Below are positions 4,265 to 22,687 of a DNA stretch of 32,000 bases, one piece after another. The notes below the pieces were generated by a model, which saw nothing but the letters and a program-made list of their open reading frames with translations, made no database searches and had not been told where the DNA came from. Each line of letters begins with the position of its first letter. The first letter of the stretch is position 1. Source of the stretch: Ilumatobacteraceae bacterium (GTDB lineage: Bacteria > Actinomycetota > Acidimicrobiia > Acidimicrobiales > Ilumatobacteraceae); the NCBI GenBank assembly GCA_963695475.1, contig CAVOHA010000007.1, positions 426,549 to 458,548 on the forward strand. Direction: 5' to 3'. Both the position numbers and the translations under genes were made by a program.

Positions 4265-5161
4265 ATGAGAAACATGGTGGTCGGTGTCGACGGGTCGGAG
4301 TCCGCGCTGGCGGCGCTCGACTGGGCCGCGGAAACGGTCGGGAGCGCCGGTCGGATCCACGCGGTCGTCGGTCTGAACCCCTGGACTCGCTACGTCGCCG
4401 ACGCCGTCGGTGGACACGAGGTGTCGTTTCGGGAGGTGCTCGAACGCGATCTCGTCGACCGCTGGACGGCCGAGACCGGATTCCGTGTGGGTGAGCTTGC
4501 AACCACCGTCAGCGACTCGACGGCTGCCAAGGCACTCGACGAGATCGCCACCGATGATCGCGCCGACGCGATCGTCGTCGGAGCACACACGTCGATCGTG
4601 GGCGCACCCGCCCGGGTCGGGCGCACGATCAACCACCTGATCCGCACCACCGACCATCCCGTCGTCGTCGTCCCCGGGCGACCACCGCTCGGTGTGGACG
4701 ACGGCGTCGTGGTGGTCGGCATCGGGCACGGCAACGCCACGCGTGCAGCGGTTCGGTGGGCGGCACATCTCGCACGCGAGCGCAGCCTCACCGTCGAGCT
4801 GTTGCACGCGACCGGCGACGCACCCGTGTTCCAGGCCGACGGAGTGCTCGAACTCGTTCGCTACGAGGTCGGGCGAGAGGATCCGGACGAATTCGAGCGC
4901 GGGTCGATCGAGCACTTCGCGGAGCTGATGCAGACGCTCGCCGGCCCCGAGCTCGATCTGGTCGTGTCGACCCCGCCGGGCCTTCCCGCACTGCGCCTCG
5001 ACGAGGCCAGTGAACGGTCGTCCCTGCTCGTGCTCGGTCGGCATCGCTCGGTGTGGGACCGGGGGCACCACACCGCACAGCCGCTCCGTCATGCGTTGAC
5101 GCACGCCCGCTGTCCCGTGGTGGTGATCGCCGATCACCCGGATTGGCTGACCGACGACTGA
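4265..5161 (+). CDS. Universal stress protein, tandem UspA domains
   Basis: N-terminus MVVGVDGSESALAALDWAA. The first domain ends in DAIVVGAHTS...HPVVVVP. The second domain runs VVVGIGHGNATRAAVRWAA ... LLVLGRHRS...CPVVVI. GGGAGGAG Shine-Dalgarno upstream. Confidence 0.8.
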   Translation: MRNMVVGVDGSESALAALDWAAETVGSAGRIHAVVGLNPWTRYVADAVGGHEVSFREVLERDLVDRWTAETGFRVGELATTVSDSTAAKALDEIATDDRADAIVVGAHTSIVGAPARVGRTINHLIRTTDHPVVVVPGRPPLGVDDGVVVVGIGHGNATRAAVRWAAHLARERSLTVELLHATGDAPVFQADGVLELVRYEVGREDPDEFERGSIEHFAELMQTLAGPELDLVVSTPPGLPALRLDEASERSSLLVLGRHRSVWDRGHHTAQPLRHALTHARCPVVVIADHPDWLTDD

Positions 5162-6597
5162 GCGACGCGCGGAGTCGCGCGCTCACCGAGCCGGATCACG
5201 GGGATGTCCCAGCGGCGGGCGAGTTCGACCAGGACGTCGTCGTGGTCGCCGTAGACCACGCCGAGATGGTGCTCGACACCCGCACCGAAGATCGTGGCCG
5301 CCACGTCGCGGACGGGCCGATCCCAGTGGATCGTGCCGCACGTCCCGCGGTACGCGCGCGGCCGATCGAGCATCTCGCCGCCGGCGATCACGAGACCGAG
5401 TCGCCCCGAACACTGCGAAATGCGAGCGACGGTCACTCGACCGGGCTTGAGCGCGAATTCGTTGACCAGCGCCACTCGTCGATTCGGGTGCACCGTGCCG
5501 CGCACCGAGTCATCGGGGTGCGCCAGTCGCGACGACGCCACGCCGCAGTGCCACAGCACCGACGTGTCGTCGGACTCGTCGACGTCGACGAGATCCGCGA
5601 TGAACGGATCGGCCCCGGCCACGAGCTGCAGCACGAGTGCCGTGATCGAGCCGAGGACGTCGGCTTCGCAGACACCCGGCACACGATCCTCGGTCAGCAT
5701 GGCGTGCGGCGTGCAGGCGGCGCCGCCGAACCGGTCCATGCACTCGGGCCAGCAGCGCGTCGCGACTGCGGCCAGCCCGCGACCGTCGACGAAGTGGCGC
5801 ATCCCGCAGTACAGACGGGCGCTCGGCTCGAGATCGTCTCGGGTCAGTCCGGCGTCGAGCGACAGCGTGGACGAGACGCGCCCGAGCACGTGGTCGACGT
5901 CGATGCGTTCGGCGTCGGTCGCCCGATCGAACAGGTCGTCGAGCATCAGCCGGTCGACCTGCACCCCGAACATCCACTCGATGAGGTGGTCGTTCCCCTC
6001 ACACGGTTCGAAACCCGTCGGTGGCTCGCCGATGATCCCCACCCGGCTGCGATGCAGTCGCTCGATCACGCGGTCGGCCGCCCGGGCGACGTGCGGATCG
6101 AACACGGCGGGACGCGCCGCGATCGTGGCCGCCCGCACGCTCGGTGATGCGCAGGCGTCGGCGATCGCCTGCGCGACGCGCTCGCCGCTGTCGGGTTGTG
6201 CCGGGTCGACGTGGACGAACGCGCATCGGTGGCGTCGCCGACGCAGCGAGTAGGCCGCGAGGTTCGCGCCACACAGCGAGTTCAACCGCAGGCGTTCGCC
6301 GTGCCGGGCCTCGGGAAACGACCAGACGACGATCGGTACGTCCGAGGCGTCGGCGATCGAGATCACCGTCGAGGCATCGGTGAAGGTCGCTTGGAGGACG
6401 ATCACGGCGTCGACTCGCTGATCGACCGCTGACCCGACGGCCGTGGCCATCGAGACGGCATCGGTGCAGACATCGCCCTCGCCGACCATCGTGACGCCGA
6501 TGCCGGCCAACACCTGTCGGGCAGCCGACGCCAGCACGGTGCCGAGCGGTACGTCGAAGGTGGGGCGACCGAGGGTCAACACCGCTGCGGTCGTCAT
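5134..6597 (-). CDS. L-fucose / L-arabinose isomerase-like family protein
   Basis: From MTTAAVLTLGRPTFDV (ATG 6597-6595). It has an N-terminal Rossmann-like segment, LNSLCGANL, WHCGVAS and a C-terminal HHLGVVYGDH, as in FucI/AraA-like sugar isomerases. The upstream 112 codons of the ORF look non-coding. An alternative ATG lies at 6615. The 3' end overlaps the convergent USP gene by 28 nt. Confidence 0.55.
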   Translation of the reverse strand: MTTAAVLTLGRPTFDVPLGTVLASAARQVLAGIGVTMVGEGDVCTDAVSMATAVGSAVDQRVDAVIVLQATFTDASTVISIADASDVPIVVWSFPEARHGERLRLNSLCGANLAAYSLRRRRHRCAFVHVDPAQPDSGERVAQAIADACASPSVRAATIAARPAVFDPHVARAADRVIERLHRSRVGIIGEPPTGFEPCEGNDHLIEWMFGVQVDRLMLDDLFDRATDAERIDVDHVLGRVSSTLSLDAGLTRDDLEPSARLYCGMRHFVDGRGLAAVATRCWPECMDRFGGAACTPHAMLTEDRVPGVCEADVLGSITALVLQLVAGADPFIADLVDVDESDDTSVLWHCGVASSRLAHPDDSVRGTVHPNRRVALVNEFALKPGRVTVARISQCSGRLGLVIAGGEMLDRPRAYRGTCGTIHWDRPVRDVAATIFGAGVEHHLGVVYGDHDDVLVELARRWDIPVIRLGERATPRVAQSSVSQSG

Positions 6598-6795
6598 CGC
6601 GCCGCCATCCAGCATCGAACGTCGTCCACATCTCCACGATGGGCGCATGCGGCCTGCGTCGACAGTGCCGAAAGCCCCACCGGAGTGCATGTGACCGAGG
6701 ACCCTGGGCGAGCACGCGGTGGCGGTGAACCATGGATGTTCTCGACGAGCGAGACGCCGTCTTGCTGCCGACACGACTGGTGAAAGGACTGCATC

Positions 6796-7008
6796 ATGAA
6801 GGCGCACACGGGTGACACACTCGTCATTTCGGGCCACGAGGTCGGCCGCCCCAAGCGAGTCGGCAGGATCGAGGAGGTCCGTGGCGACGACGGTGGGCCT
6901 CCCTACCGCGTGCGGTGGCGCGAGGACGACCACGTCACGCTGCTGTTCCCCGGCCCCGACTGCACGATCGAACCGATGGGTTCCGACGACGAGAAGGGAG
7001 CGGAGTGA
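6796..7008 (+). CDS. DUF1918 domain protein (70 aa)
   Basis: MKAHTGDTLVISGHEVGRPKRVGRIEEVRGDDGGPPYRVRWREDDHVTLLFPGPD matches the characteristic DUF1918 pattern (GD.L...G......R.G.I.EVRG.DG.PPY.VRW). GAAAGGA Shine-Dalgarno upstream. Confidence 0.7.
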   Translation: MKAHTGDTLVISGHEVGRPKRVGRIEEVRGDDGGPPYRVRWREDDHVTLLFPGPDCTIEPMGSDDEKGAE

Positions 7009-7466
7009 TGAAGGTCAGTGACTTCACCTGGCGCGACCCGGTGACGATCTCAGTGTCCGACACGATCCAGGCCGCGGCGCAGTTGCTCGCCGACGCCGGT
7101 GTCGGTTCGTTGGTCGTGGTGGACGGCGATCGCCCGGTGGGCGTCGTCACCGATCGGGACCTGGTGGTCCGGGCGATGGCGCGGGGCCTCGGGCCCGACG
7201 GCCGGGTCGACGGCGTCATGTCGATGGGCGTCGTCGCACTGGATGCCGACGACGACGTCGAGGAGCTGTACGCCGTGTTCGGTCGTCATGCGATCCGGCG
7301 GGTTCCGGTCGTCGACCGCGACCGAGTGGTCGGCGTGATCAGCCTCGACGACGCGCTCGTCTCGACCGCGAGCCAGCTGGCGGTGCTGTCCGGCGTGCTC
7401 TCCACCCAGATCGACTACCCGCACGTCCGGGACGAAGCCGAGCCCCCGGCGGTGATCCCCTCCTGA
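7008..7466 (+). CDS. CBS domain-pair protein (152 aa)
   Basis: The ATG at 7008 overlaps the DUF1918 TGA (TGATG). Two CBS repeats are present (GVVTDRDLVVRAM and GVISLDDALV). Confidence 0.8.
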   Translation: MKVSDFTWRDPVTISVSDTIQAAAQLLADAGVGSLVVVDGDRPVGVVTDRDLVVRAMARGLGPDGRVDGVMSMGVVALDADDDVEELYAVFGRHAIRRVPVVDRDRVVGVISLDDALVSTASQLAVLSGVLSTQIDYPHVRDEAEPPAVIPS

Positions 7467-7481
7467 CCGCGCGGTCCTTGG

Positions 7482-7506
7482 CCTCTGGCGCTGCACGGCG
7501 CAGAGG
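7482..7506 (+). terminator. GC-rich hairpin downstream of the CBS gene (possible terminator or attenuator before ppsA)
   Basis: CCTCTGGCG (7482-7490), loop CTGCACGG, then CGCAGAGG (7499-7506). This gives an 8-bp stem with one bulged G and no U-tract. Confidence 0.25.
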
Positions 7507-7544
7507 TCGACGATGGGAGTTGGGCCTCACGAAAGGATCCGGTC

Positions 7545-9866
7545 ATGGCGACCGCCGACATTCAGACAGTTCCTCGTTCCGACTCGCCGAGTGCCGCCGA
7601 GCCCTCGACGATTGCGCTCTCCGAGGTCGGATCGTCCGATGTCCTCCTCGTGGGAGGCAAGGGCGCCAACCTGGGAGAGATGCTCGCGAGCGGCTTTCCC
7701 GTTCCCGACGGCTTCGTCGTGACCGCGGCCGCGTACCGACGGGTGGTCGACGAGTCGGGGATCCGACAGCGCCTCGCCGACATCACCGCAGCCGCGGCGA
7801 CGGCGGATGCCGGTGAGCTGACCGAACTGGCGCGCACGGCCCGCGACCTGCTGGGCGAGGTGTCGCTGCCCGATGACCTCATCGCCGAAGTGACGCGTAT
7901 GTACGCAGCCCATTGCGCCGGCGCGCTGGTCGCCGTGCGATCGTCCGCAACGGCCGAGGACACCGCGGAGACCTCCTTCGCGGGGATGAACGAGTCGTTC
8001 ACCAACGTCACCGCCGTCGACCTCCTCGATCGGCTGATCGACTGCTGGATCTCGCTGTTCGGTGAGCGTGTCGTGTCCTATCGAGCCGAACGCGGGCTGG
8101 CCGACGAGCCGGCGATCGCCGTGGTCGTCCAGCAGATGGTGAGTTCGGACCGCTCGGGCGTCATGTTCACCGCTGATCCGGCCCGCCGTGACCAGGTGAT
8201 GATCGAGGGTGCCTTCGGGCTGGGCGAGATCGTCGTGTCCGGCGCCGTCGAACCCGACACCTACCGCGTCGATCGGGAGTCGGTCGGCGTCCGTGAGATC
8301 CGCATCGGGCACAAGGCGGCGCGGATCGTGAGCGGTCCCGACGGCGATCGTCACGAGGTCGTCGAGGGGAGCGAAGCCTGGAGCCGGGTGCTGTCCGACG
8401 AGGAGATCCGGGCCGTCGCCTCGATCGGCCTCGACATCGAGCGGCACTACGGTGTCCCCCAGGACATCGAGTGGTCCTACGTCGGCGATCGTTTGTACAT
8501 CGTGCAGTCGCGGCCGATCACCACGCTCGACATGGAGGCCGACGTCGACGACGAGCCGCTGCTTCGCGGCCTGGGGGTCGGTACCCGATCCGGTGTCGGT
8601 GCGGTGCGGATCCTCACGTCCCCGGCCGACGGCCACCTGCTGGCCGACGGTGACGTGTTGGTGGCCGAGATGACATCGCCCGACTGGGTGCCGACCATGC
8701 GCCGTGCTGCGGCCCTCATCACCGATGCCGGGGGCAGCACGTGCCATGCGGCGATCGTCAGCCGCGAGCTGGGCCTCCCCGCTGTCGTCGGCACACGCTC
8801 GGCCACCGCCGACCTGCGCGACGGCGATGTGGTCACGGTCGACGCCCGCCGGGGCATGGTGTTCGCCGGTGGACAGCATGTCGCTGTCCCCACCGTGGTC
8901 GAGCGCAGCGCGCAGACCGTGACGACGGGTGCCGAGCCCCTCGCCACGCGGTTGTACGTGAACCTGGCGATCGCCGACCGGGCCGAGGAGATCGCGGCGC
9001 TCGATGTCGACGGCGTGGGCCTGCTGCGCGGCGAGTTCATGGTGACCGAAGCGCTTGCCGGCCGTCATCCACGTGCGCTGATCGCGAGCGGTGGACAGGG
9101 CGAGTTCGTCGACCGCATGTCGTCGCAGCTCGGTCGCATCGCGTCGGCGTTCGCGCCGCGGCCGGTCGTGTACCGGACGATGGACTTCCGGTCCAACGAG
9201 TTCCGGGGGCTCGAGGGCGGTGAGCAGTACGAACCGCTCGAACAGAACCCGATGATCGGCTACCGCGGGTGCTATCGCTACCTCCACGACACCGAGACCT
9301 TCGCGCTCGAACTCGAGACGCTCGCTCGGGTCCGCGAGGCGTCGCCCAACCTGCACGTGATGATCCCGTTCGTCCGCACGAAGTGGGAGCTCGAAGCGTG
9401 TCTCGAAGCGATGGCGCAGAGCCGACTCGGTCGCCAAACCGGTCTGCGGACCTGGGTCATGGCCGAGGTGCCGTCGGTCATCCCACGGATCGCGGAGTAC
9501 GCGGCGCTCGGGATCGACGGCGTGTCGATCGGGTCCAACGACCTCACGCAACTGATGCTCGGCGTCGATCGTGACTCCGAGGTGCTGGCCGAGCTGTTCG
9601 ACGCTCGCGACACCGCGGTGCTGTGGGCGATCGAGCAGATCATCTCGGCGTGCCATCGTGCCGGGATCACGTCGTCGCTGTGCGGCTTGGCGCCGTCGTC
9701 CGATCCGGAGTTCGCGGAACTCCTGGTGCGGATGGGGATCACGTCGATTTCGGTCGACGCCGACGCGGTCGGGCCGGCCCGACGAGTCCTCGCGTCCGCT
9801 GAACGGCGAATCCTGCTCGAGCACGCGAGATCCCGGCCGATCACCGGCGACGGGAGCAGTGGGTGA
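7545..9866 (+). CDS. ppsA: Phosphoenolpyruvate synthase (pyruvate, water dikinase)
   Basis: N-terminal ATP-grasp region ([23 protein letters not shown]). Phosphohistidine swivel motif [22 protein letters not shown]-terminal PEP/pyruvate TIM barrel (IGSNDLTQL, catalytic-Cys loop SSLCGLAPS). 773 aa. Confidence 0.9.
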
Positions 9867-12664
9867 TGACCACCGAGGTCTGGCAGGTGGCGCGTGGCGA
9901 ACTCGGGCTCGCATCGGACGCGAACGACGTGAACATCGCGGACCTGGCCGTGTCGCGCCACGTGCGCGCCGGCCGCGGGGAGCAGACCGCCCTGCGGTGG
10001 TTCTCGCGCGACGACCTCGACACCGAGCGCCCGGTCGACATCACGTACGCGATGCTCGAACACCGCATCAACCGATTCGCCGGTGGGCTGCACCGCCACG
10101 GCTTCGACCCCGGGTCCGGTGTGGCAACGCTCGCCGGGCGCATTCCGGAGCTGTACGTCGCGGCGCTCGGCACGCTGCGCGCCCAGTGCGTGTACTCGCC
10201 GTTGTTCAGCGCGTTCGGCCCGGAGCCGATCGCGCAGCGGCTCGCGATCGGCAAGATCCGCGTCCTGGTCACGACGCCGGTGCAGTACCGACGCAAGGTG
10301 ACGAAGATCCTCGACCGCCTCCCCAGCCTCGAGCTCGTGTTGATCATCGGCGCCGACGAGGGCTCGTTGCCCGATCCCCCCGACACCCGAACGACCGTGA
10401 TGTCGTTCGGTCGCTTCGTCGGCGAGGGCCACGATGTGTACGCCGCCGCCGCCACTGCCCCCGACACGCCGTCGCTCCTGCACTTCACGAGCGGCACGAC
10501 GGGGGCGCCGAAGGGAGCGGTCCACGTGCACGAAGCGGCGGTTGCGCACTACGCCACGGCGCGGTCGGTGCTCGACCTGCACAACGGTGACGTGTACTGG
10601 TGCACCGCCGACCCCGGATGGGTGACCGGTACCTCGTACGGCATCGTCGCCCCGCTGCTGCACGGCGTCACGTCGATCATCGACGAAGCCGACTTCGATG
10701 CGGCGCGGTGGTATCGGATCCTGCGGGACCAGGCCGTCAACGTGTTCTACACCGCACCGACCGCGATCAGGATGCTCGAACGCGTCGGCGACGACGCGCA
10801 ACCCGGCGACTTCCCGGCGTTGCGGCTGGTGGCGAGCGTCGGTGAGCCACTCGACGCGGAGTCGGTGCTCTGGGCGCAGCAGGTGTTCCGGGTGCCCGTG
10901 CTCGACACGTGGTGGCAGACCGAGACGGGAGCGATCATGATCGCCAACCGCAAGGATGACGAGGTCCGGCCCGGGTCGATGGGCCGTCCGGTCGACGGGA
11001 TCACGGCGACGCTGCTCGAACGAGATGCGCAGGGCGAGTTGATCCTCGGTCCGGAGGGGGCGGCGCGCGAGGTGGTCGAGCCGGGAGCGACCGGCGAGAT
11101 CGCCGTGCGCGCCGGGTGGCCGTCGATGTTCCGCGGCTACCTCGACCGTGACGAGAAGTACCGGTCCTGCTTCGTCGAGGCGGGTGATGGTGCCGACGGG
11201 GATTGGTACCGATCGGGCGACCTCGCCCGACGTGACGAGGACGGCTACTTCTGGTTCGTCGGCCGCGGTGACGACGTGATCAAGACCGCCGGACACCTGA
11301 TCGGGCCGTTCGAGGTCGAGGCGGTGCTGGACGAGCACCCCGCAGTGGTCGAATCCGGGGTGATCGGCAAACCCGACCCGACGGCGGGAGCGGTGATCAA
11401 GGCGTTCGTCGTCCTCCACCGCGGTCACGAACCGAGCGCGGAGTTGCACACCGATCTCATGGCGCACTGTCGGCGTCGTCTCGGCGCGGCGGTGTCGCCG
11501 CGCGAGATCGAGTTCGCCGACTCGCTCCCGCACACCCGCAGCGGCAAGATCATGCGGCGGGTCCTGCGGGCCCGCGAGCTGGGCGAAGACGAAGGCGACA
11601 CGTCGACACTCGAGACCGTCCCGTCCACGACGGGGGCCCGAACGATGACGCGCTTTCGACTCGACGGTGTCACCGCAGACGAAGCCCGCGGATTGCTCGG
11701 TGACATGATCCGAGTCCGGGTGTTCGAAGAACGGTGCGCCGAGTTGTACGCCGAGTCGAAGATCCGGGGGTTCTTGCATCTCTACATCGGCGAGGAGGCG
11801 GTGGCGGCCGGCGTGATCGGTGCGCTCGATCCGGCGGACAACGTCCTCGCCACGTACCGCGAGCACGCGCACGCCCTGCTGCGTGGTGTCCCCGCCGAAT
11901 CGATCATGTCCGAGATGTTCGGCAGGGCGACCGGGTGCTCGGGCGGGCGGGGTGGCTCGATGCACCTGTTCGACGAGTCGACCCGCTTCTACGGCGGCAA
12001 TGCGATCGTCGGCGGGCACCTCCCACTCGCCGTCGGCCTGGCGTTGGCCGATCAGATGCTGCACCGTCGAGCCGCCACCGTGTGCTTCTTCGGCGAGGGT
12101 GCGATGGCCGAGGGGGAATTCCACGAGGCGATCAACCTCGCCGCGCTGTGGAACCTCCCGGTCCTGTTCTGCTGCGAGAACAATCGTTACGCGATGGGCA
12201 CATCGCTCGAATCCAGTGAGTCGCAGGTCGACCTCGCGCTCAAGGCGGCGGCCTACGCGATTCCGGCCTGGGTGGTCGACGGGATGGATCCGTTGGAGGT
12301 CCGTCGCGCGGCGCGCCGCGCGCTGGCGACGATCGAGGCGGGCGGAGGCCCGGTGTTCATCGAGTTCCAGACGTATCGGTTCCGGGCGCACTCGATGTTC
12401 GACCCCGATCTGTACCGGGACCCCGCCGAGATCGAGTACTGGAAGCAACGGGACCCGATCGACGTCCTCGGCCGGTGGCTCGCCGCCGAGGAGCTGGTCA
12501 CGACCGCCGAGGTCGACGCACTGTGGGAACGGGCACGATCCGAGACCGATCAGGCGGTGGTCGCGGCCGACGCTGCGCCACTCGAACCCGTCGAGGGGCT
12601 GCTCGAACACGTCACCGCGGCTCGTGCCGGCCGACACGGAGAGGAGCGGAACGATGTCCACTGA
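9866..12664 (+). CDS. In-frame fusion: AcsA-type AMP-forming acetyl/acyl-CoA synthetase (N-terminal, about 9866-11614) joined to the TPP-dependent 2-oxoacid (pyruvate/acetoin-type) dehydrogenase E1 alpha subunit (C-terminal, 11645-12664)
   Basis: Synthetase motifs: [64 protein letters not shown] 10-aa linker [10 protein letters not shown] follows with no in-frame stop. E1alpha motifs then appear: [54 protein letters not shown]. The start ATG at 9866 (or GTG at 9863) overlaps the ppsA TGA. Confidence 0.8.
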
Positions 12665-13679
12665 CACGGCCTCCGACGTCGTCGAGACAGGGCCGGTTCT
12701 GGAAACGACGTACCGCGAGGCGATGCGGCTGGCGATCCGTGAGGCACTGGAGACCGACGACCGTGTGATCGTGCTCGGTGAGGACGTCGCCGACTACGGC
12801 GGCACGTATGCGGTGACCAAGGGCCTCCACGAGGAATTCGGACGCGACCGCGTGCGCAACACACCGCTGTCCGAGTCCGGCTTCGTCGGTGCCGGCATCG
12901 GCGCAGCGCTCGGCGGGCTCCGGCCGATCGTCGAGATCATGACCGTCAACTTCAGCCTGTTGGCGCTCGACCAGATCGTCAACACGGCGGCCACGCTGCT
13001 CCACATGTCGGGCGGGCAGTTCAACGTCCCGGTCGTGATTCGGATGACCACCGGCGCGGGTCGGCAGTTGGCGGCGCAGCATTCTCACAGCCTCGAGGGC
13101 TGGTACGCACACGTTCCCGGGTTGAAGGTCGTCGCCCCGGCGACCGTTGCAGACGCACGGTGGATGTTGCCGACGGCGCTGGCCGACCCGAACCCCGTGA
13201 TCATCTTCGAGCACAACGCGCTGTACGGCATGAAGGGAACGCTCGATCCGGACGGATCGCCCGTCGACCTCGAGACGGCCGCGATTCGTCGCCGGGGCGA
13301 CGATGTCACCCTGGTGGCGAGCGGCGGCATGGTCCCCAAGGCGCTCGCCGCCGCGGCGACGCTCGCCGAACGCGGCGTGTCGGCCGAGGTGGTCGATCTC
13401 CGATCGCTGCGCCCACTCGATGTCGCGACGCTCGAGACGTCGGTGACCAGGACACACCATGCGGTCGTCGTCGACGAGGGCTGGCGGACCGGTGGGTTGA
13501 GCGCGGAACTGTCCGCCGTGATCACCGAGGCGTGCTTCTGGACGCTCGACGCTCCGGTGCGCCGGGTGGCGGCCGCCGAAGTACCGATCCCGTACGCCAA
13601 GCACTTGGAGGACCACGCGATTCCCCAAGCGGACGACATCGTGGTCGCGGCCGTCGAACTCCTCGAGGAGGGCGCGTGA
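12654..13679 (+). CDS. 2-oxoacid dehydrogenase E1 component beta subunit
   Basis: [65 protein letters not shown] is the canonical PdhB/AcoB N-terminus, and a transketolase C-terminal-like region follows. GGAGAGGAG Shine-Dalgarno. The start overlaps the upstream gene by 11 nt. Confidence 0.9.
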
Positions 13680-14854
13680 GCGACGCAGGGGTCACGACCG
13701 CCGCGGCGGCGACCGCGACGTCCGAAACCGAGTCGTCGATCGAGTACGCGATGCCGTCCCTCGGCGCGGACATGGAGGAGGGTGCGGTCGTCGAGTGGCT
13801 GGTCGCCGTCGGCGATCACGTCGAGCGAGGACAGGTGGTCGCACGCGTCGAGACCGAGAAGTCCGACATCGACATCGAGATCTGGCACGAGGGGATCGTC
13901 GACGAGATCCTCGTGCCGACGCACCGCACGGTCCCCGTCGGGACCCCCCTCCTGCGGTTCCACGCCGCCGGAGCAGCCGTGGACCGGCCCGCGACGCTCG
14001 ACCCGGTCTCCTCCGGCGTCATCCGCGCCACACCGTTCGCACGCCGGCTCGCTGCGGATCGCGGCGTCGAACTGCGTGACATCGCCGGCACCGGGCCCGG
14101 TGGCGCGGTGCGTGCGCGCGACGTGCCCGATGTGTCCGTGCCCGTGGCGAGTCCGGCGCCGACGCCCGCCGTGCCGCGGGAGCACCGCGGCGAGCGGATG
14201 CGAACGGTCATCGCGCAGCGGATGGACCGGTCGAATCGTGACATCCCGCAGTATCGGTTGGAACGGACGGTCGACCTCGATGCGCTGCTCCGTCACCTCG
14301 CCGCCATCAACGAGGACCGCCCGGTGGCGGAGCGGATCGTGCCGGCCGCAGCATTCGTTCGAGCTGTCGCCCTGGCCGCCGGACGTCATCGAGCGCTCAA
14401 CGGGACGTGGATCGACGACGGCTTCCAGCCCGGACCCGCCGTGAACGTGTCGATCGCGATCTCGCTGCGCACCGGTGGACTCGTCACGCCGACGATCCCC
14501 GATGCCGACCGCCTGTCGCTCGACGACACGATGGCACGGATCCGCGAGTACACGACGGCGGCGAGGTCCGGGACGCTGCGATCCGAGTGGACGCGTGCCG
14601 ACAGCACGATCACCGTGACCAACCTCGGCGACCGCGGCGCCGACCTCGTGCACGGGTTGATCTCACCACCGGAGGTGGCGCTCGTGGGGTTCGGACGGAT
14701 CCTCGAACGTCCGTGGGTGGTCGACGGCGCGGTCGTCCCGAGACCCGTCGTCCACGTCACCCTCGCTGCCGACCACCGCGCAACCGACGGCGCGGTCGGC
14801 AGCCGCTTCTTGTCCACTCTCACCCGCATCCTGGAGGAGCCCGATCAGACATGA
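13676..14854 (+). CDS. Dihydrolipoamide acyltransferase (E2) with one lipoyl domain
   Basis: The GTG start overlaps the E1beta stop (GTGA). Lipoyl domain [18 protein letters not shown]...[11 protein letters not shown], with a lipoyl-lysine context. Peripheral subunit-binding domain [33 protein letters not shown]. Catalytic domain with DHRATDG. Confidence 0.85.
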
Positions 14855-15111
14855 GCAACGACACCGCGACCATCCGACTGCGGCGCGCGATCGACGATGC
14901 GATCTCGGCCGTCGCGCCCGACGTGACCGACGAACTCGCCGACCTCGATCCGGATGTCGACCTGTTCGAGGAGTTCGGACTCGACTCGATGGACCGCCTC
15001 AACATCATGACAGCGCTCGCGCAGTCGACCGGCGTCGAGATCTCCGACGACCGGTATCCCTGGCTGACGTCGATCAACCGCCTGCTGGCCGAGTTGTCGT
15101 CGGCCCGGTGA
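14851..15111 (+). CDS. Acyl carrier protein-like (phosphopantetheine-binding) protein, 86 aa
   Basis: The ATG overlaps the E2 TGA (ATGA). An acidic four-helix-sized protein with the carrier-protein serine motif LFEEFGLDSMDRLNIMTAL. Confidence 0.7.
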   Translation: MSNDTATIRLRRAIDDAISAVAPDVTDELADLDPDVDLFEEFGLDSMDRLNIMTALAQSTGVEISDDRYPWLTSINRLLAELSSAR

Positions 15112-15937
15112 TCACGAAGGCGACACCCGGGGCGGGTGCGGGAGGCGGAAGACGAGCACGGGGCACGGCGCGTGGCGAACGAAACCGGATGTGACGCTGC
15201 CCATCGTCAGCCGGGACAGACCGCTGCGCCCGTGGGACGACGCAACGATCAGCGACGCGTGGTGTCGCTGCGCGTAGGCGCACACCGCAGCGACCGGGTG
15301 CCCATCGTGCAACTCGTCGAACTCGACCGAGTGGTCGGACGCCTCGCGTAGCTCGCTGGCCAGTCGGGCGAGGTAGACGGCGTCGGTCGCCTCCCCACCG
15401 TCACCCGGTGTGGACGAGCCCGTCGCGTGGACGATCCACGGTGTGGTCCCCAGCTCGACCGCCCAGGCCACACCCAGTGGCACGGCCGCCTCTGACGCCT
15501 CCGAACCGTCGACCGTGATCACGAGGGGGCCGCAGAAGTCGTCGGGTTCGGCCTGCGGGCCCACCAGGACGATCGGGCCGAACGAGTGCCGAAGGATCTG
15601 ATCGGCGACGCTTCCGACCACTGCGGCGGAGCGCCCCTTTCCGTGCGACGCCATCACGACGAGAACGTCGGGCACCGACTCGACCAGCGCGCTGATCGTT
15701 TCGCCGACGGACCTCGCGCTCGAGCTGGACGTTCGTCGTCACCGGGACGTCCATCGGCGCGCGTCGATCGATGTCCACCGCCAACTGCTCGCGAGCGAGG
15801 TCTGCATCGACGGGATCCGACTCGACCTGCACCACCTCGACCTTGGCGTCGAACCGCCGCGCCAACGCGATGGCGACGTCGAAGCCGCGCCACGAAGCAG
15901 CCGATCCATCGATCGGCACGATGATGTGCGTGGCCAT
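15112..15937 (-). pseudogene. Tandem universal stress protein interrupted by a frameshift near 15709-15738
   Basis: After a GGAGGGGAG Shine-Dalgarno, ATG 15937-15935 starts MATHIIVPIDGSAASWRGFDVAIALARR...VTTNVQLERE. That frame then turns into Arg-rich nonsense. The USP sequence continues in the adjacent frame as SVGETISALVESVPDVLVVMASHGKGRS...LVGP, followed by a complete second USP domain that ends CPVLVF. This could be a real frameshift or a sequencing indel. Confidence 0.6.
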
Positions 15938-16142
15938 GTCGCTCCCCTCCGATACTCGGGCGTTCCGCGGGTCCACATCCAGATACGCGCGTTCGAGGTC
16001 GTGCCGCCAGGTCCGTTGGTCACTTCGGCGTCGTTTCGGCGTCACGACGCAGGGACATTCGGCCCTTGCCGTCGACGTCGCGTCGCGCGATCAATCGAGA
16101 CAGAGCCGACACGTCGCATGTCGGCAGGAAGGTGACCGAACG

Positions 16143-16391
16143 ATGTGTTTCACCGAGCCCGGATGTGTGCAGTCGATCGACGGTTCCATGGTTCGCGTCG
16201 ACACCGTGCACGGAGTGTGCGACGCATCGACACGGATGGTCGAGGCCGCCGGCACGACCGTCACGCCCGGCGACTGGGTGCTGATGTCGCTCGGCCTGGT
16301 CGTCGACGTCGTCGACGAAGCCGAAGGACGTGCGCTGCTCGAGCAGATGCGCGAACTGCACATGGGGGTCGAGCCATGGCCGATTCCGTGA
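16143..16391 (+). CDS. hypC: HypC/HybG/HupF-family [NiFe]-hydrogenase maturation chaperone
   Basis: The N-terminus begins with the obligatory Met-Cys: MCFTEPGCVQSIDGSMVRVD. It is followed by GDWVLMSLGLVVDVVDEAEG, matching the HypC pattern MC.(G/A).PG....(I/V)D ... GD(W/Y)VL.H.G.A. 82 aa. Confidence 0.75.
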   Translation: MCFTEPGCVQSIDGSMVRVDTVHGVCDASTRMVEAAGTTVTPGDWVLMSLGLVVDVVDEAEGRALLEQMRELHMGVEPWPIP

Positions 16392-17308
16392 GTGGGCTCC
16401 GCCTGGCGCTCGTCGCCGCGGGTGTATCGGGCGTGGCGGTGTACGTGAACGGGGAGGCGGTCGGACGGTTCTCCTCGGCAACGGTCTACACCACCGGAAA
16501 GAACCTCGTCGCGGGGCTGCTGCTGGTGACACTCGCGATCGCCCTGCCGCGCGCCGGGGGATCGCCTGCGCCCGCCGCCGGTCGGATGTGGTCCACCCGG
16601 GAGCGGCTCGGTCTCGCCGCCGTGGCGTTGATCGGCGGTGCGGTGCCGTTCGTCCTGTTCTTCGAGGGGCTCGCCCGTGCGACGTCGAGCGATGCCGCCT
16701 TCCTGCACAAGACCCTCGTCGTCTGGGTGGCCGTCTTTGCCGTCGCGCTGCTCGGTGAGCGACTCACGGCCCTCCATGTCGGCGCCATCGCACTGCTGAT
16801 CGCCGGGCAGGTCGCTCTCGCCGGAGGGATCAGCTCGCTGCACGTCGGGGCCGGCGAGGCGATGATCCTGGCGGCGACGATCTGCTGGGCAGCCGAGTTG
16901 ATCCTGGTGAAGCGTCTCGTCGAACGGCTGCCATCGACGACGGTCGGTGCGGCTCGGATCGGGGGCGGTGCGGTGCTGCTCGTCGTGTGGCTGGCGTTGT
17001 CCGGACGCCTCGACGAACTCGTGTCGCTGTCCATGTCGCAGTGGGCGTGGCTCCTCGTCACCGGAGGCATCCTCTCGATGTTCGTGACGGTGTGGTTCGC
17101 GGCGGTCGCCCGGGCGCCGGTCATCGACGTTGCGGCGTTGCTCGTGCCGGCTGCGGTGATCACCGGGCTCATTCGGCTCGCGGCCGAAGGAAACACTGCG
17201 CCGATCCAGGTGGTCGGCTGGTCGCTGATGCTGCTCGGGGTGGCTGCGGTGATCGCAGGGCGCCGCGCCGATCAGCGCGATCACGGTGTGATCGGGGCGG
17301 TGACGTGA
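16376..17308 (+). CDS. DMT-superfamily (EamA-like) permease, about 10 TM segments
   Basis: Two EamA-like halves of hydrophobic helices are separated by ERLTALH. The gene overlaps the hypC 3' end. An alternative GTG start at 16388 would form a GTGA overlap with the hypC stop. Confidence 0.7.
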   Translation: MADSVSGLRLALVAAGVSGVAVYVNGEAVGRFSSATVYTTGKNLVAGLLLVTLAIALPRAGGSPAPAAGRMWSTRERLGLAAVALIGGAVPFVLFFEGLARATSSDAAFLHKTLVVWVAVFAVALLGERLTALHVGAIALLIAGQVALAGGISSLHVGAGEAMILAATICWAAELILVKRLVERLPSTTVGAARIGGGAVLLVVWLALSGRLDELVSLSMSQWAWLLVTGGILSMFVTVWFAAVARAPVIDVAALLVPAAVITGLIRLAAEGNTAPIQVVGWSLMLLGVAAVIAGRRADQRDHGVIGAVT

Positions 17309-18027
17309 ACGACCCGATCGGCGTGGCTCGCTTCATGCGGTACGCCGCCCCGCCCAATCAGCGCGGATTCTGCGGGCCGTCGGGGTTCGGATCGCTCGAC
17401 CCGACGATGCCGGAGGCCCACGCGGAGGCCCGCCACCGGGCGAAGGAGTTCCTGGGTGCGTATCCGTATCTCGAGCTGTTGGCGGGCGCGGCCGGACTCG
17501 AGGACCCGCTCGCCGACGTCGCGGTCGAGGCGTACTGGCTCGGCAATCGGATGGCCGCCCGCGTCTCGACCGGCGATTTCGGGCGGTCGCTCGCCGATCG
17601 GTTCCGTGTGCGGAGCGGTCGCAACTGGGCGCCCGTGGAGTCGGCCGTGCCGGGTGCTGTCTGCAATCACGCGTTCCATGTGCTCGTCGCCTCCCCGTGG
17701 GTCGGGCTGATGCGCAGTGGCGTGGTCGACGAACCGCTCGCGATCGTCGACGAGTGTCGAGTCAGCTGGGGCAAGGTCGTGTCGATCGACGACGCGCCGC
17801 GTCACTCGGTCGAGCGCACGCCACTCGAGTGGCACAACGGCCGTCTCCTTCCCGGCCGCCTCGAGACGGTCGAGGTGTTCAGCGAGCTCCCGCTGTCGCT
17901 CGGCGATCACGTCGCCCTCCACTGGGGGTGTGTGTGCGACGTCCTGTCTCAGCGTCAACTCGCGTGGCTGCGCTCCGTGACGGCGTCGCAACTCGCCCTG
18001 TCCCACTCGATCGGACGGCCCTGCTGA
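17305..18027 (+). CDS. Conserved hypothetical protein with an N-terminal YAAPPN.RGFCGP domain and a C-terminal HypC-like segment
   Basis: The GTG at 17305 overlaps the permease stop (GTGA), and the gene's own stop overlaps the hyhB ATG (TGATG). The C-terminal CRVSWGKVVSIDD...GDHVALHWGCVCDVLSQRQ parallels the HypC motifs. I recall similar actinobacterial DUF proteins but cannot verify the family here. Confidence 0.55.
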   Translation: MNDPIGVARFMRYAAPPNQRGFCGPSGFGSLDPTMPEAHAEARHRAKEFLGAYPYLELLAGAAGLEDPLADVAVEAYWLGNRMAARVSTGDFGRSLADRFRVRSGRNWAPVESAVPGAVCNHAFHVLVASPWVGLMRSGVVDEPLAIVDECRVSWGKVVSIDDAPRHSVERTPLEWHNGRLLPGRLETVEVFSELPLSLGDHVALHWGCVCDVLSQRQLAWLRSVTASQLALSHSIGRPC

Positions 18028-19208
18028 TGAGCCCGCGTGCCGCTACACCACCCATCGTGACCGGTCCGGATGGGCTGACCGGCATCGTCGACGAACTCGA
18101 TCGCGCCGGCTTCGACGTCTGGGGGCCGGCCGTGCGCGACGGCGTCATCGTCACGCGTCGCATCGACGGGAGTGACGAGTTGCCGCTCGGATACCGCGTG
18201 GAGCAGTCGCCGGGTTCGTCTCGCCTGCTCCAGACCGGCGACCGCTCACGCTTCGGGTGGGCGGTCGGCCCGCAACCGTGGAAGCCGCTGCTCCATCCGC
18301 CATCGGTCACCACGATGCACATCACCCAGCGGTCCGCCGCGCAACCCGTGACCGTGAGCCTGCGTGGCCGGCCGCCACGACCGCTGGCGCTGTTCGGGAT
18401 GCGGCCCTGCGATCTCGCCGCACTCGAGACATTGGATCGCGTCCTCATCGATGCGCCGCCGGTCGCCGAGCCCACCTACGACGGTCGTCGCACCGACGCG
18501 TTCCTCGTGGTGGTCAACTGCGCCGTTCCCGCGTCGACGTGCGCCTGTACGTCGTTCGGGACGGGACCCCACGTCGGCGAGCCCGACGGCGATCATGCCG
18601 GCCACGATCTGGAGATCACCGAACTCCTTCCGTCCGATCCCGCCGAGGATCCCGAGTACGTCGTCGCCGCGATGAGCGAGCGAGGCGCTTCGCTGATGGC
18701 CCGTGTCGCCGAGCGCGTCGCGGTCGACCAACTCCGAGATCGACACGTCGCGGCAATCGCCGATCAACGGGCGGCCGCGGCGACGGCGATCTCGCGCCGT
18801 GCGCCCACCGATCGCGTGCGCGGCGCCTTGGCAGATGCCCACGATCTGCACCGCTGGAGCGAGCTCGAAGGGCAGTGTGTCGCGTGCGGCAACTGCACCG
18901 CGGTGTGTCCCACGTGCTTCTGCACGACCGTCAACGACATCGGCGACCTGACGGGAACGCAGGTCGAGCGACACCGTGACTGGGAGTCGTGCTTCTCGCT
19001 CGAGTTCAGCCGTCTGGGTGACCACTCCGTTCGCTCGTCGGTTGCGTCTCGCTACCGCCAGTGGATGACACACAAGCTCGGAACGTGGCACGACCAGTTC
19101 GGCGAGTCGGGCTGCGTCGGGTGCGGTCGGTGCACGACGTGGTGTCCGGTCGGTATCGACTTCTTCGCTGTTGCCGATGGCATCGTCGATGCAGTGGAGG
19201 CGCGGTGA
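18027..19208 (+). CDS. hyhB: Group 3b [NiFe]-hydrogenase beta subunit (AsrA-like 4Fe-4S dicluster protein)
   Basis: Two ferredoxin-type cluster motifs are present, CVACGNCTAVCPTCFC and CVGCGRCTTWCPVG. The architecture and position upstream of the gamma, small and large subunits match sulfhydrogenase/Hyh operons. Confidence 0.8.
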   Translation: MSPRAATPPIVTGPDGLTGIVDELDRAGFDVWGPAVRDGVIVTRRIDGSDELPLGYRVEQSPGSSRLLQTGDRSRFGWAVGPQPWKPLLHPPSVTTMHITQRSAAQPVTVSLRGRPPRPLALFGMRPCDLAALETLDRVLIDAPPVAEPTYDGRRTDAFLVVVNCAVPASTCACTSFGTGPHVGEPDGDHAGHDLEITELLPSDPAEDPEYVVAAMSERGASLMARVAERVAVDQLRDRHVAAIADQRAAAATAISRRAPTDRVRGALADAHDLHRWSELEGQCVACGNCTAVCPTCFCTTVNDIGDLTGTQVERHRDWESCFSLEFSRLGDHSVRSSVASRYRQWMTHKLGTWHDQFGESGCVGCGRCTTWCPVGIDFFAVADGIVDAVEAR

Positions 19209-20056
19209 TGTCCGCTGCCGAGCTCGTCGACATGCCCGTTCCCCACCGCATCGTCGCGCGTCACGAGGAGACCGTCGACGTGGTGACCCTGCGCGTGCAG
19301 CCGGTCGCGACGCAGCTCCCGGACTTCCAGCCGGCTCAGTTCTCGATGATCGGGGTGGTGGGTGTCGGCGAGGTCCCGATCTCGATCAGTTCGACCTGCG
19401 ACGACCGGACGGCCCACGACTACACGCTGCGCCGCGCCGGCGCGGTCACCAACGCACTGTGGAATCGCCGAGTCGGTGACGTGGTGACCGTGCGCGGACC
19501 GTTCGGCCGACCCTGGGACCTGCAACGCGCCGACGGTCGTCACGCGGTGTTCATCGCCGGCGGCATCGGGATCGCGCCGCTGCGCGCCGCGATCGTCGAA
19601 CTTGCCACCCACCGGGCGGCCACCCCGAGCCGCCTCTCCGTCCTGGTCGGCGCAGCGACGCCGAGTGACCACCTCTACGAACCGTGGCTGGCCGACCTCG
19701 CGGCCGGCGGCGTCGAGGTGCTGCGGTCGGTGGATCGAACGGGTGACGTCGATGACTGGCCACATGCGATCGGATTCGTGACCGAGCTGATTCCCCCGGT
19801 CGTCGCGGAGTGGACCGGGAACGTTGCGGTCAGCGCCTACGTGTGCGGCCCGGACGCGATGATGTCTGCTGCCATCGACACCCTGCGTCGGTGCCGTGTT
19901 GCACCCGCCGATGTCGAGGTGACCCTCGAGCGCAACATGCAGTGTGCCAACGGTTGGTGTGGGCACTGCCAGCTGGGGCCACTGCTGGTGTGCCGAGACG
20001 GCCCGGTTGCAAGCGCAGTCGAACTCGGCGACCTGCTCGAACGGAGCGAGTTGTGA
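19208..20056 (+). CDS. hyhG: Group 3b [NiFe]-hydrogenase gamma subunit (FAD/NAD(P)-binding, 2Fe-2S; AsrB/PyrK-like)
   Basis: Ferredoxin-reductase-type fold ([19 protein letters not shown]). C-terminal cluster motif [22 protein letters not shown]. The ATG overlaps the hyhB stop (TGATG). Confidence 0.8.
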
Positions 20057-20832
20057 ACCGGCCCGTGACGCTCGGTCGCCCCGAGGCCGTTCCCACGCTC
20101 GCCGTCTGGAAGTTCGCGTCGTGCGACGGATGCCAGTTGTCGCTGCTCGACTGCGAGGACGAGCTGTTGGCGATCGGCAATTCGATCCGCATCGCGTCGT
20201 TTCCCGAGGCCTCGAGTGCGATCGTCGACGGCCCGTACGACCTCTCGCTCGTCGAAGGCTCGGTCACCACGCCGGACGATGTCGAACGGATCCGGGCGAT
20301 CCGTGCCGCGTCGACGACCCTGGTGACGATCGGTGCGTGCGCGACGGGAGGTGGGATCCAGGCGCTGCGCAACGGTGCCGACATCGAGGAGTATCTCTCG
20401 ATCGTGTACGCCCACCCCGCGTACATCTCGACGCTGGCGACCTCGACGCCGATCGCCGACCACGTGGACGTCGACTTCGAACTCCGCGGATGCCCGATCG
20501 ATCGGCGACAACTCGTCGAGGTCGTCGCGGCCTACCTGACCGGCCGTCCGCCACGCATCGCATCGACGAGCGTGTGTACCGAGTGCAAGGCTCGTCGAGT
20601 CGCGTGCGTCATGGTCGTCGACGGCGAACCGTGCCTGGGTCCGGTCACGCACGCCGGGTGCGGCGCGCTGTGCCCCTCGTTCCGCCGCGGCTGCTACGGG
20701 TGTTTCGGGCCGGCCGAGACCGCTGACACGGCAACCCTCGATCGTCAGCTCGAACGACTCGGACTCGACGAGCGCGACCGGGAACGCCTGTGGCGGGGGT
20801 TCAGCGGGTGGAAGCTCGGAGGCCCGCGATGA
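20053..20832 (+). CDS. hyhS: Group 3b [NiFe]-hydrogenase small (delta) subunit
   Basis: NuoB/hydrogenase-small-subunit pattern [23 protein letters not shown], plus a C-terminal Cys-rich region ([27 protein letters not shown]). The GTG start overlaps the hyhG stop (GTGA). Confidence 0.85.
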
Positions 20833-22139: not shown

Positions 22140-22687
22140 ACGCCGCCCGTCCGGCGGTGGTGATCGGCGTGGGTCATCGCGACCGTGCCGACGACGGCAT
22201 CGGCCCCGCGGTGGCAGAGGCACTCGGCGAGCGCAGCGACCAGGTGCGCACGATCGTGCGCGAAGGCGACCTCGCGGTGCTGCCGCTGCTGTGGGACGGC
22301 GACGACGACGTCGTGATCGTCGATGCGTTGGCCGGCGTCGGGTCGCTCGGACAACTCGTCGAGCTCGACCCCGACGACCTGACCGCGGGTGCCGGGCTGT
22401 CGACGCACGGGCTGAACATCGCCGACGGCATCGAGCTGGCCCGTCGGCTGCACCGGTTGCCGGCCCAACTGCGGGTGTTCGGCGTGACGGGACAGGACTT
22501 CGGGTACGGGCCGATGTCGAGCAGCCTGCGTCGGCGCGTCGACCCACTGGTCGAGGAGCTGATGCTCGAACTCGGAGTTGCGGAGGTTCAGGTCGTCGCC
22601 GGGGAGGGCGGCGTGCGACGATCGACCGATGCCGACCAATCGCCGTGTAGCCCTGACCCGCCGTCCGATCGGTCAGGCCACCCCTGA
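22136..22687 (+). CDS. Hydrogenase maturation endopeptidase (HycI/HoxW-like)
   Basis: VVIGVGHRDRADDGIGPAVAEAL ... VVIVDA ... LSTHGL is the conserved protease pattern (GN..R.DDG.G; D; H). The ATG overlaps the hyhL stop (ATGA). A low-complexity C-terminal tail of about 35 aa overlaps the next gene by 59 nt. Confidence 0.75.
   Translation: MNAARPAVVIGVGHRDRADDGIGPAVAEALGERSDQVRTIVREGDLAVLPLLWDGDDDVVIVDALAGVGSLGQLVELDPDDLTAGAGLSTHGLNIADGIELARRLHRLPAQLRVFGVTGQDFGYGPMSSSLRRRVDPLVEELMLELGVAEVQVVAGEGGVRRSTDADQSPCSPDPPSDRSGHP

Follow-up and report, generated by a model that had tools for sequence, protein, structure and literature searches.

Why should the genes of a pyruvate dehydrogenase (PDH) travel with an acetate ligase and an acyl carrier protein (ACP), and without a lipoamide dehydrogenase (E3)? 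This question is raised by a stretch of 32,000 nucleotides from an Ilumatobacteraceae bacterium (GenBank assembly GCA_963695475.1, contig CAVOHA010000007.1, forward-strand positions 426,549 to 458,548), hereafter the window, with a GC content of about 69%. Five open reading frames (ORFs) on its plus strand, all translating without interruption, encode a phosphoenolpyruvate (PEP) synthase (PpsA), an acetyl-CoA synthetase of the AMP-forming type (Acs) joined in frame to the alpha subunit of a PDH-type decarboxylase (E1alpha), the partner subunit E1beta, a lipoyl-bearing acyltransferase (E2) and an ACP of 86 residues (Table 1). An earlier interpretation, here called the sequence-only reading, had proposed that all five genes form one coupled functional unit. 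Its domain predictions were recovered in the five products by Pfam and curated NCBIfam profile searches, and the four junction overlaps that it listed could be read directly from the sequence. The 86-residue product, which it had called a carrier protein, passes the PF00550 threshold and bears the predicted phosphopantetheine-attachment serine. No exact-sequence match to the window PpsA or to the fusion protein is on record.

Comparison with related loci redraws the unit: it is Acs-E1alpha-E1beta-E2-ACP, a horizontally mobile module of four or five genes. Relatives were sought by scanning one genome per species with an alignment of E2, which gave at least 561 confirmed stretches, and the best 80 loci were surveyed. 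By tblastn, every locus with enough flanking sequence has Acs, E1alpha and E1beta, in this order, upstream of E2, and an iterated ACP profile places a carrier-protein ORF with the motif (I/L)DS(M/F/V/L)D directly after E2 in 85/85 loci. The complete module thus keeps its order in all 85 loci with enough flank, from more than ten phyla, and the same order is seen in each opened context (L001-L005). The best 80 loci belong to Ilumatobacteraceae and other Acidimicrobiia, Acidobacteriota, Gemmatimonadota, Alpha- and Betaproteobacteria and Cellulomonas, as well as to Desulfobacterota, Myxococcota, Chloroflexota, Cyanobacteria, Sericytochromatia, Bacteroidota, Verrucomicrobiota and Binatia. Plasmids of cultured bacteria also carry the module, namely those of Rhodococcus sp. 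DK17, Desulfotalea psychrophila LSv54 (a conjugative plasmid), Burkholderia savannae, Methylocystis rosea, Cupriavidus sp. and Leisingera methylohalidivorans. The nearest relatives of the window are two Ilumatobacteraceae (Acidimicrobiia) metagenome-assembled genomes, L001 with 88-95% and L006 with 74-88% amino acid identity.

The translational coupling is shared as well. When the start codon nearest the upstream stop was chosen, a rule that favours overlaps, the commonest state was an overlap of 4 nt at the Acs/E1alpha (53/72 loci), E1alpha/E1beta (45/75) and E2/ACP (75/84) junctions and of 8 or 4 nt at the E1beta/E2 junction (58/78). Start/stop overlap is therefore the dominant state family-wide and not a peculiarity of the window strain; in the window, GGAGG-like motifs precede the last three junctions (12654, 13676 and 14851). 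With order and coupling conserved in 85/85 loci of many phyla, the idea of one functional unit was borne out, and the core order is not confined to one strain. The ACP proved to be an integral member: it stands behind E2 in every locus, and its serine is invariant in an alignment of 81 sequences.

PpsA fared differently. The window protein is a genuine PEP synthase, with three domains, a phospho-histidine motif and equivalog-level scores (TIGR01418, 759.4, cut-off 739.75; NF005057, 793, cut-off 598). A ppsA gene is found no further than 10 kb from the module in about 20/84 loci from several phyla (tblastn; 18 loci by clustering), directly upstream in the window and L006, directly after the ACP gene in L053, L056, L061, L070 and L077, and also near the module in Rhodococcus sp. 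DK17 and Leisingera. Direct coupling is restricted to the sub-clade of the window. PpsA, which had been counted as part of the unit, is rather an optional recurrent partner outside the invariant core.

The Acs::E1alpha fusion named in the sequence-only reading comes down to a single base of the window sequence and does not characterise the family. The window is one base longer than both L001 and L006 within GGGGGCCC, a G5C3 run (11632-11639) that lies 6-13 nt before the E1alpha ATG (11645) and just upstream of AACGATGA. The extra base puts Acs in frame with this ATG, and the ATGA of L001 and L006 is a stop/start overlap. Likewise, each of the seven Acs homologues nearest in sequence (81-93% identity) is a separate protein of about 590 residues that ends at the junction. 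To judge from the alignment, either the window fusion arose very recently through a one-base event, or the homopolymer run contains an indel error. In L001 (an ENA assembly) PpsA and E1beta are fragmented (7661-10004 and 12785-13812), which suggests that this assembly contains frameshift errors; where the assemblies differ in frame by a single base, the window fusion included, caution is needed. Real Acs::E1alpha fusions exist elsewhere, in a clade at about 56% identity with proteins of 814-931 residues: the C-terminal motif of Acs is retained in P0008, P0011, P0012, P0014 and P0015, whose linkers differ in length, and P0009 and P0010 look frameshifted at the junction. On the Leisingera methylohalidivorans plasmid (L091 4993-6990), E1alpha and E1beta are annotated as one protein of 665 residues. 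Such independent Acs::E1alpha fusions, together with the E1alpha::E1beta fusion, argue for a single complex.

The lack of an E3 gene in the window was confirmed by tblastn with an E. coli Lpd query, and the same query, run against the loci, found an E3 homologue within 10 kb in 1/88. On the plasmid of D. psychrophila LSv54 a lipoate-protein ligase gene directly follows the module (L087 10520-11530), so that this copy would be self-sufficient for E2 lipoylation; no such neighbour was seen in the other loci. A role of the ACP itself in lipoylation was considered and is unlikely: the ligase is adjacent only in Desulfotalea, and this enzyme uses free lipoate.

Taken one by one, the enzymes look familiar. 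E1alpha, E1beta and E2 have the domains and motifs of a 2-oxoacid (pyruvate) dehydrogenase; the closest solved relatives are human PDH E1alpha (1ni4, E = 3e-66) and a mitochondrial-type PDH E2 (8x03, E = 2e-45). E2 carries one lipoyl domain, with its lysine in VETEKSD, and the catalytic motifs DHRATDG and TVTNLG; the lipoyl lysine, the subunit-binding domain and DHRxxDG are invariant in 6/6 aligned sequences. The module thus resembles the canonical pdhA-pdhB-pdhC-lpd operon for a PDH with heterotetrameric E1, and mitochondrial PDH in particular, in its catalytic motifs, single lipoyl domain and peripheral subunit-binding domain, but differs from it in that lpd is missing from the locus in 87/88 cases, that ACP and Acs are obligatory and that E2 stays far below every curated E2 equivalog cut-off (best 191 bits, cut-off 445). 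The window Acs is closest to a 572-residue AcsA (9g79, E = 6e-132) and has the ANL fold, the pocket tryptophan and the adenylation lysine of AMP-forming acetyl-CoA synthetases, with the acetate pocket DTWWQTETG and the catalytic lysine in RSGKIMRR. Among 70 module Acs sequences the D(N/T)WWQTETG pocket and the catalytic lysine (SGKIMRR) are invariant. The ACP family profile matches structures of AcpP and of the mitochondrial carrier protein ACPM (E about 1e-13), which confirms that the protein belongs to the four-helix ACP family. At least 5225 clusters of this ACP type occur in a large protein collection, and among the top 120 of these matches none was fused to other domains, all being stand-alone proteins of 79-93 residues.

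These motifs bear on the substrate. It is very unlikely that the module handles acetoin or another 2-oxoacid, or that it runs in a reductive direction, with acetate and ATP giving acetyl-ACP, acetyl-dihydrolipoyl, hydroxyethyl-thiamine diphosphate (TPP) and finally an aldehyde or acyloin, as a sink for NADH comparable to carboxylic acid reductases; the latter variant seems just as improbable. An electron sink would suit the stress-gene context described below, the E2 matches no curated equivalog, E1alpha clears TIGR03182 narrowly, and strict anaerobes with PDH-like complexes often use them for acetoin. Yet E1alpha and E2 are nearest to true PDH components, the Acs pocket is invariably of the acetate type with its two tryptophans, the recurrent PpsA link points to pyruvate, and reversal of reductive acetylation would, by its redox potentials, be thermodynamically unfavourable.

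Which of the enzymes the ACP serves was approached by a mirror-tree analysis, in which pairwise distance matrices of six parts of the module from 54 loci were compared by partial correlation given all other parts. The known physical partners E1alpha and E1beta, taken as positive control, gave a partial r of 0.40. The same value was obtained for ACP and Acs (bootstrap 0.23-0.52; reached in 0/500 permutations; 0.50 without the window clade). Values were lower for ACP with the E2 lipoyl domain (0.20; 0/500 permutations) and with the E2 catalytic domain (0.10, reached in 22/500 permutations; -0.05 when the window clade is left out), and about zero with E1alpha (-0.02) and E1beta (0.03). Acs and the E2 catalytic domain gave 0.33. 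This pattern points to Acs as the closest partner of the ACP and to an Acs that is tied to the E2 core, in agreement with the Acs::E1alpha fusions.

A rival account would be an ordinary alternative PDH beside an ordinary Acs, both making acetyl-CoA, with a gluconeogenic PpsA and an accessory ACP of minor, regulatory or lipoylation-related function; the operon would then be a node of pyruvate and acetate assimilation. Both statements seem unlikely. That the scores of each enzyme are those of a canonical PDH, Acs or PpsA, that PGAP names them acsA and pdhA, that the CoA-contacting arginines of Acs are conserved and that E2 retains its E3-binding domain would be expected from such an operon. It leaves unexplained, however, an ACP with an invariant serine that is translationally coupled to E2 in 85/85 loci, a co-variation of this ACP with Acs as strong as that of E1alpha with E1beta, the near-absence of a linked E3 (1/88 loci), the fusion of Acs to E1alpha, and a plasmid spread that reaches strict anaerobes and stress islands rather than central-metabolism genes.

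An acetyl relay would account for these features, and the chances are about even that the core is such a self-contained acetyl-handling machine of low-oxygen and energy-stress islands, passing acetyl groups from TPP to the lipoyl arm and on to phosphopantetheine, in exchange with acyl-AMP. E1alpha-beta would decarboxylate pyruvate and acetylate the lipoyl arm of E2, and E2 would then load the acetyl group onto the ACP, at its phosphopantetheine thiol, instead of or besides free CoA. The acetate-specific ligase, predicted to be bound to the complex, would interconvert acetyl-S-ACP, AMP and pyrophosphate (PPi) with acetate and ATP. An E3 encoded elsewhere would re-oxidise the lipoamide, with H2 as a possible outlet for the reductant. 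In Actinomycetota, PEP synthase and a group-3b-like hydrogenase often accompany the module, and the preferred catabolic direction would lead from PEP over pyruvate and acetyl-ACP to acetate, with AMP salvaged to ATP at PpsA and Acs.

The transfer from lipoyl to carrier has precedents. The fold of the E2/CAT domain is common to the condensation domains of non-ribosomal peptide synthetases (NRPS), which take carrier-bound thioesters. PDH-like E1/E2 pairs whose acyl groups go to a carrier protein rather than to CoA, and which lack an E3 gene, have been documented or proposed for QncN/QncL/QncM (quinocarcin, naphthyridinomycin), SclQ1-4 (scleric acid) and Photorhabdus pepteridine (PMC5384830, PMC6335953). 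From this kinship and these precedents the lipoyl-to-carrier chemistry is plausible. The module shares with them a TPP-dependent E1, a lipoyl E2 and a small carrier protein without a clustered E3; the known systems, in contrast, contain no Acs, lie in NRPS or other biosynthetic clusters and draw on donors such as ketose phosphates, whereas the module has no assembly line, PDH-type E1 and E2, an invariant acetate ligase, a stress and energy context and members in many phyla. The judgement that the composition was unlike known clusters thus stands for the full module, of which no description was found in the literature searched, and not for PDH-like carrier priming. What is known already is a PDH-like complex loading a carrier protein in a few secondary-metabolite pathways; the obligate acetate-specific AMP-forming ligase, the lack of an assembly line, and the oxygen-limitation islands with their very wide distribution appear undescribed in the same literature. 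A carrier-tethered 2-oxoacid oxidation, the first of two earlier hypotheses, is the better-supported half: the ACP co-varies most with Acs and next with the E2 lipoyl domain, but its link to the E2 catalytic domain is weak.

For the ligase, the residue survey (n=70), which covered the CoA-binding loop and the A8-motif arginine, is ambiguous between CoA and ACP as thiol substrate. The equivalent of R584 (S. enterica Acs numbering), to which Gulick-lab Acs studies are reported to assign binding of the CoA 3'-phosphate, is invariant in 70/70 module Acs, and that of R194 is basic in 63/70. The equivalent of R191 is leucine or glutamine, the Glu-Gly pair (E188-G189) that opens the CoA loop is absent, and at the equivalent of R526 the module Acs always has leucine or methionine within a signature GH[L/M][I/V]GP, where canonical Acs has arginine. 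An AMP-forming acetate:SH-ACP ligase that acetylates a dedicated carrier thiol inside a multienzyme complex is known from citrate lyase (CitC); it can be likened to the module by this description only, being of an unrelated ligase family with another prosthetic group and no TPP or lipoyl chemistry. The AMP-forming Acs of Syntrophus aciditrophicus runs in the ATP-forming direction from acetyl thioester, AMP and PPi (PMC4992975, PMC13404658), and the altered CoA-binding loop of this SaAcs1 sets its bias between the AMP-forming and the ATP-forming direction (2026 preprint, PMC13404658, from which the CoA-loop residue roles used here are taken). Like SaAcs1, the module Acs is an AMP-forming enzyme proposed to yield ATP where Pta-AckA is lacking (PMC4992975, PMC13404658). 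SaAcs1 is, however, a class-I Acs acting on free acetyl-CoA outside any PDH/ACP operon, while the module enzyme is of the shorter AcsA type, with a CoA loop without Glu-Gly and leucine or methionine at the R526 equivalent. As far as the aligned residues tell, the loop of the module Acs is too different for the SaAcs1 rule to be transferable (PMC13404658).

The neighbourhood of the module gives further hints at its physiology. The flanking ORFs of 85 loci were clustered, and the largest families were identified as universal stress proteins (Usp; 25 loci), PAS sensor kinases (24), Hsp20/alpha-crystallin (13), CMD (12), CBS-pair proteins (11), GerE-type response regulators (10), PolX (10), Aas-like AMP-binding/PP-binding/acyltransferase proteins (9), phosphoribosyltransferases (8), BON proteins (8) and Glu/Leu dehydrogenases (7). 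Pairs of a sensor kinase and a GerE-type response regulator adjoin the module in L005 (PAS-type kinase) and Rhodococcus DK17 (GAF-type, DosS-like), and a Crp/Fnr regulator does so in Leisingera. Across the 85 loci and the annotated isolates the module therefore clusters with Usp, Hsp20, CBS, BON and regulators of the oxygen or redox type, a repertoire that, by its gene families, is that of oxygen-limitation islands. The surroundings on the Leisingera plasmid (L091) comprise a divergent ppsA, Usp, Hsp20, CBS and the Crp/Fnr gene. Two such islands have been described. The DosR regulon of Mycobacterium smegmatis includes, besides PfkB and Hyh, a 3b hydrogenase, a PEP synthase that lies next to Hyh and is induced 70-fold; PEP drops in hypoxia, and the role of this PEP synthase is unexplained (10.1101/2023.09.11.557286). 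The lxa locus of Burkholderia cenocepacia encodes Usp, alpha-crystallin, BON proteins, a cation ATPase, a metallo-RNase, acetate kinase and phosphotransacetylase (PMC3721108). Genes of these sets that recur beside the module are those for Usp, Hsp20/alpha-crystallin, CBS, BON, PfkB, phosphoribosyltransferase, cation ATPase, metallo-beta-lactamase RNase, PEP synthase, group 3b hydrogenase and DosS/R-like or Crp/Fnr regulators. Pta-AckA holds in lxa the metabolic position that Acs would hold in the module, and the Acs-PDH-ACP module is absent from the text of both papers (10.1101/2023.09.11.557286, PMC3721108).

The hydrogenase of the window would fit this repertoire. All four subunits have the Pyrococcus sulfhydrogenase (group 3b) as best NCBIfam match, far below cut-off (alpha 219, cut-off 880), and the architecture of a beta Fe-S, a gamma FAD/NAD, a delta small and an alpha large subunit fits group 3b. 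The structural genes had been placed 1 kb downstream of the module; they begin 3 kb downstream (18057), and only hypC lies about 1 kb away. The hydrogenase block also adjoins the module in L001, L003, L004, L006 and L015. The second earlier hypothesis, an AMP-linked fermentation from PEP to acetate, agrees with the context (Usp, Hsp20, CBS, DosRS-like or Crp/Fnr regulators, 3b-like hydrogenase).

The ATP-yielding direction is preferred here as a tentative and rather doubtful proposition; it is suggested by the stress and energy context, the recurrent link to PpsA and H2 evolution, the analogy with Pta-AckA in lxa and the example of S. aciditrophicus (PMC4992975). Tethering of the substrate would help the uphill reaction. 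In its strongest form the proposal is distinctly doubtful: a previously unrecognised machine for substrate-level phosphorylation, in which E2 would load a private ACP arm and the ligase would release acetate and make ATP from AMP and PPi, extended in Actinomycetota by reverse PpsA and H2 evolution. If true, it would work with three swinging arms (TPP, lipoyl and phosphopantetheine) and allow aerobes and anaerobes of many phyla, when oxygen or energy is limiting, to draw ATP from pyruvate without Pta-AckA.

Several points weigh against the acetyl relay and its ATP-forming direction. Acs is otherwise a canonical CoA ligase, and since the CoA-contacting arginines (R584 and R194 equivalents) are conserved, it may still use free CoA as thiol substrate. 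Under standard conditions the reverse Acs reaction runs uphill, and it requires PPi, for which no source was identified here. The full scheme from PEP to acetate and H2 is not the universal function, because PpsA and hydrogenase are absent from most loci. The mirror-tree method is crude, giving noisy correlations from non-independent pairs, and direct transfer from E2 to ACP finds no support in it, given the weak correlation with the E2 catalytic domain. E2 also retains its E3/E1-binding domain, and ordinary NAD-linked turnover with an unlinked E3, with nothing to distinguish it from a normal PDH, is likely.

The same acetyl-ACP could instead feed biosynthesis. Pyruvate through E1/E2 and acetate through Acs would then supply acetyl-ACP to an unlinked consumer during growth arrest, such as a ketosynthase that primes the synthesis of storage lipids, fatty acids or polyketides. 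This anabolic role is quite unlikely, the ketosynthase version no less so, even though the known PDH-like E1/E2/carrier systems do supply biosynthetic assembly lines (PMC5384830, PMC6335953), M. smegmatis routes carbon to triacylglycerol in hypoxia (10.1101/2023.09.11.557286), the co-variation of ACP and Acs fits loading by Acs, the AMP-binding/PP-binding/acyltransferase gene is found near 9 loci, and the window has an acyltransferase gene at 24179-25198. The 85 loci show no conserved neighbour that could act as consumer, be it a ketosynthase, a condensation domain or another; NRPS, polyketide synthase or condensation enzymes were found neither in the window nor among the families enriched around these loci. 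The neighbours are stress and energy genes rather than lipid genes, and spending ATP to AMP would be costly during energy stress.

Should the ACP be the acetyl acceptor, the module would be a widespread exception to the textbook view that the PDH of central metabolism always delivers to free CoA. The proposed relay, if true, is a candidate for making or saving ATP and for pyruvate disposal during hypoxic persistence of obligate aerobes and uncultured soil and sediment bacteria. Plasmid copies in cultured, tractable bacteria (Rhodococcus sp. DK17, L. methylohalidivorans, D. psychrophila and B. savannae) make the hypothesis directly testable, and the five-gene signature could be used as a genomic marker for the proposed physiology.

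Table 1. Features of the module and its flanks in the window (numbers after profile names are scores)
Feature	Position	Strand	Profiles or remarks
DUF1918 protein	6796-7008	+	Pfam; upstream of ppsA
CBS-pair protein	7005-7466	+	Pfam; 4-nt overlap with DUF1918 gene
PpsA, 773 aa, three domains and phospho-His motif	7545-9866	+	PF01326, PF00391, PF02896
PpsA/Acs junction, TGATG	9864-9868	+	
Acs::E1alpha ORF	9866-12664	+	PF00501, PF13193, PF00676
Acs part, AMP-forming acetate ligase, B. subtilis AcsA/PRK04319 type	9866-11644	+	NF003313 738, cut-off 729
Acs/E1alpha junction, GGGGGCCC, then AACG ATGA	11632-11648	+	alignment with L001 and L006
E1alpha, TPP-binding subunit, pyruvate-dehydrogenase type	11645-12664	+	TIGR03182 405.8, cut-off 393.85
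E1alpha/E1beta junction, 11-nt overlap	12654-12664	+	ATG at 12654, stop 12662-12664
E1beta	12654-13679	+	PF02779, PF02780; NF006667 390, cut-off 321
E1beta/E2 junction, GTGA	13676-13679	+	
E2: lipoyl, peripheral subunit-binding and catalytic domains	13676-14854	+	PF00364, PF02817, PF00198
E2/ACP junction, ATGA	14851-14854	+	
ACP, 86 aa, Ser in GLDSMD	14851-15111	+	PF00550 32.9, cut-off 20.8
Usp, convergent	15112-15675	-	
HypC, EamA transporter, DUF6390, four-subunit NAD(P)-linked [NiFe]-hydrogenase, HycI protease	16143-22687	+	
Hydrogenase structural genes	18057-22139	+	

The DUF1918/CBS pair, which sits upstream in L001 too, consists of context genes and possibly marks the start of the transcription unit. 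The 78 nt that separate the CBS gene from ppsA (7467-7544) hold a GC-rich hairpin, GGCCUCUGGCGC...GCGCAGAGGUC, whose folding z of -1.7 against shuffled sequences is not significant. No sigma-70-like promoter or convincing terminator was found in 6700-16400, a result that is uninformative at 69% GC. The stop codon of the ACP gene (TGA, 15109-15111) abuts that of the convergent Usp gene (TCA on the plus strand, 15112-15114) with no intergenic base, which leaves no room for a terminator between them. A DosR-box-like palindrome, GGGACnnnnGTCCC, is not enriched in the window at up to 2 mismatches (25 matches, 49 expected), and two of the three sites with one mismatch lie in divergent intergenic regions. 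The half-palindrome GGGACCTGGGACCC sits in the intergenic region of the CBS and metallo-beta-lactamase genes, and GGGACATTCGGCCC in the one upstream of hypC (1638-1695, 16052-16065); a comparison of 8-mers between intergenic regions yielded nothing.

Some further genes of the window deserve mention. The gene of the DUF6390 protein (17305-18027) is placed between those of the EamA transporter and the hydrogenase, as it is in L001, L003 and L012. Class-I polyphosphate kinase 2 is encoded 12 kb downstream of the module (27200-28057, minus strand; TIGR03707 343, cut-off 302), a further nucleotide-phosphorylating enzyme near the AMP-forming PpsA and Acs. Upstream, a protein of 493 residues (5134-6615, minus strand) has partial matches to the C-terminal domain of fucose isomerase and, with 280 bits (cut-off 700), to the model of sulfoquinovose isomerase; this protein keeps its position in L001.

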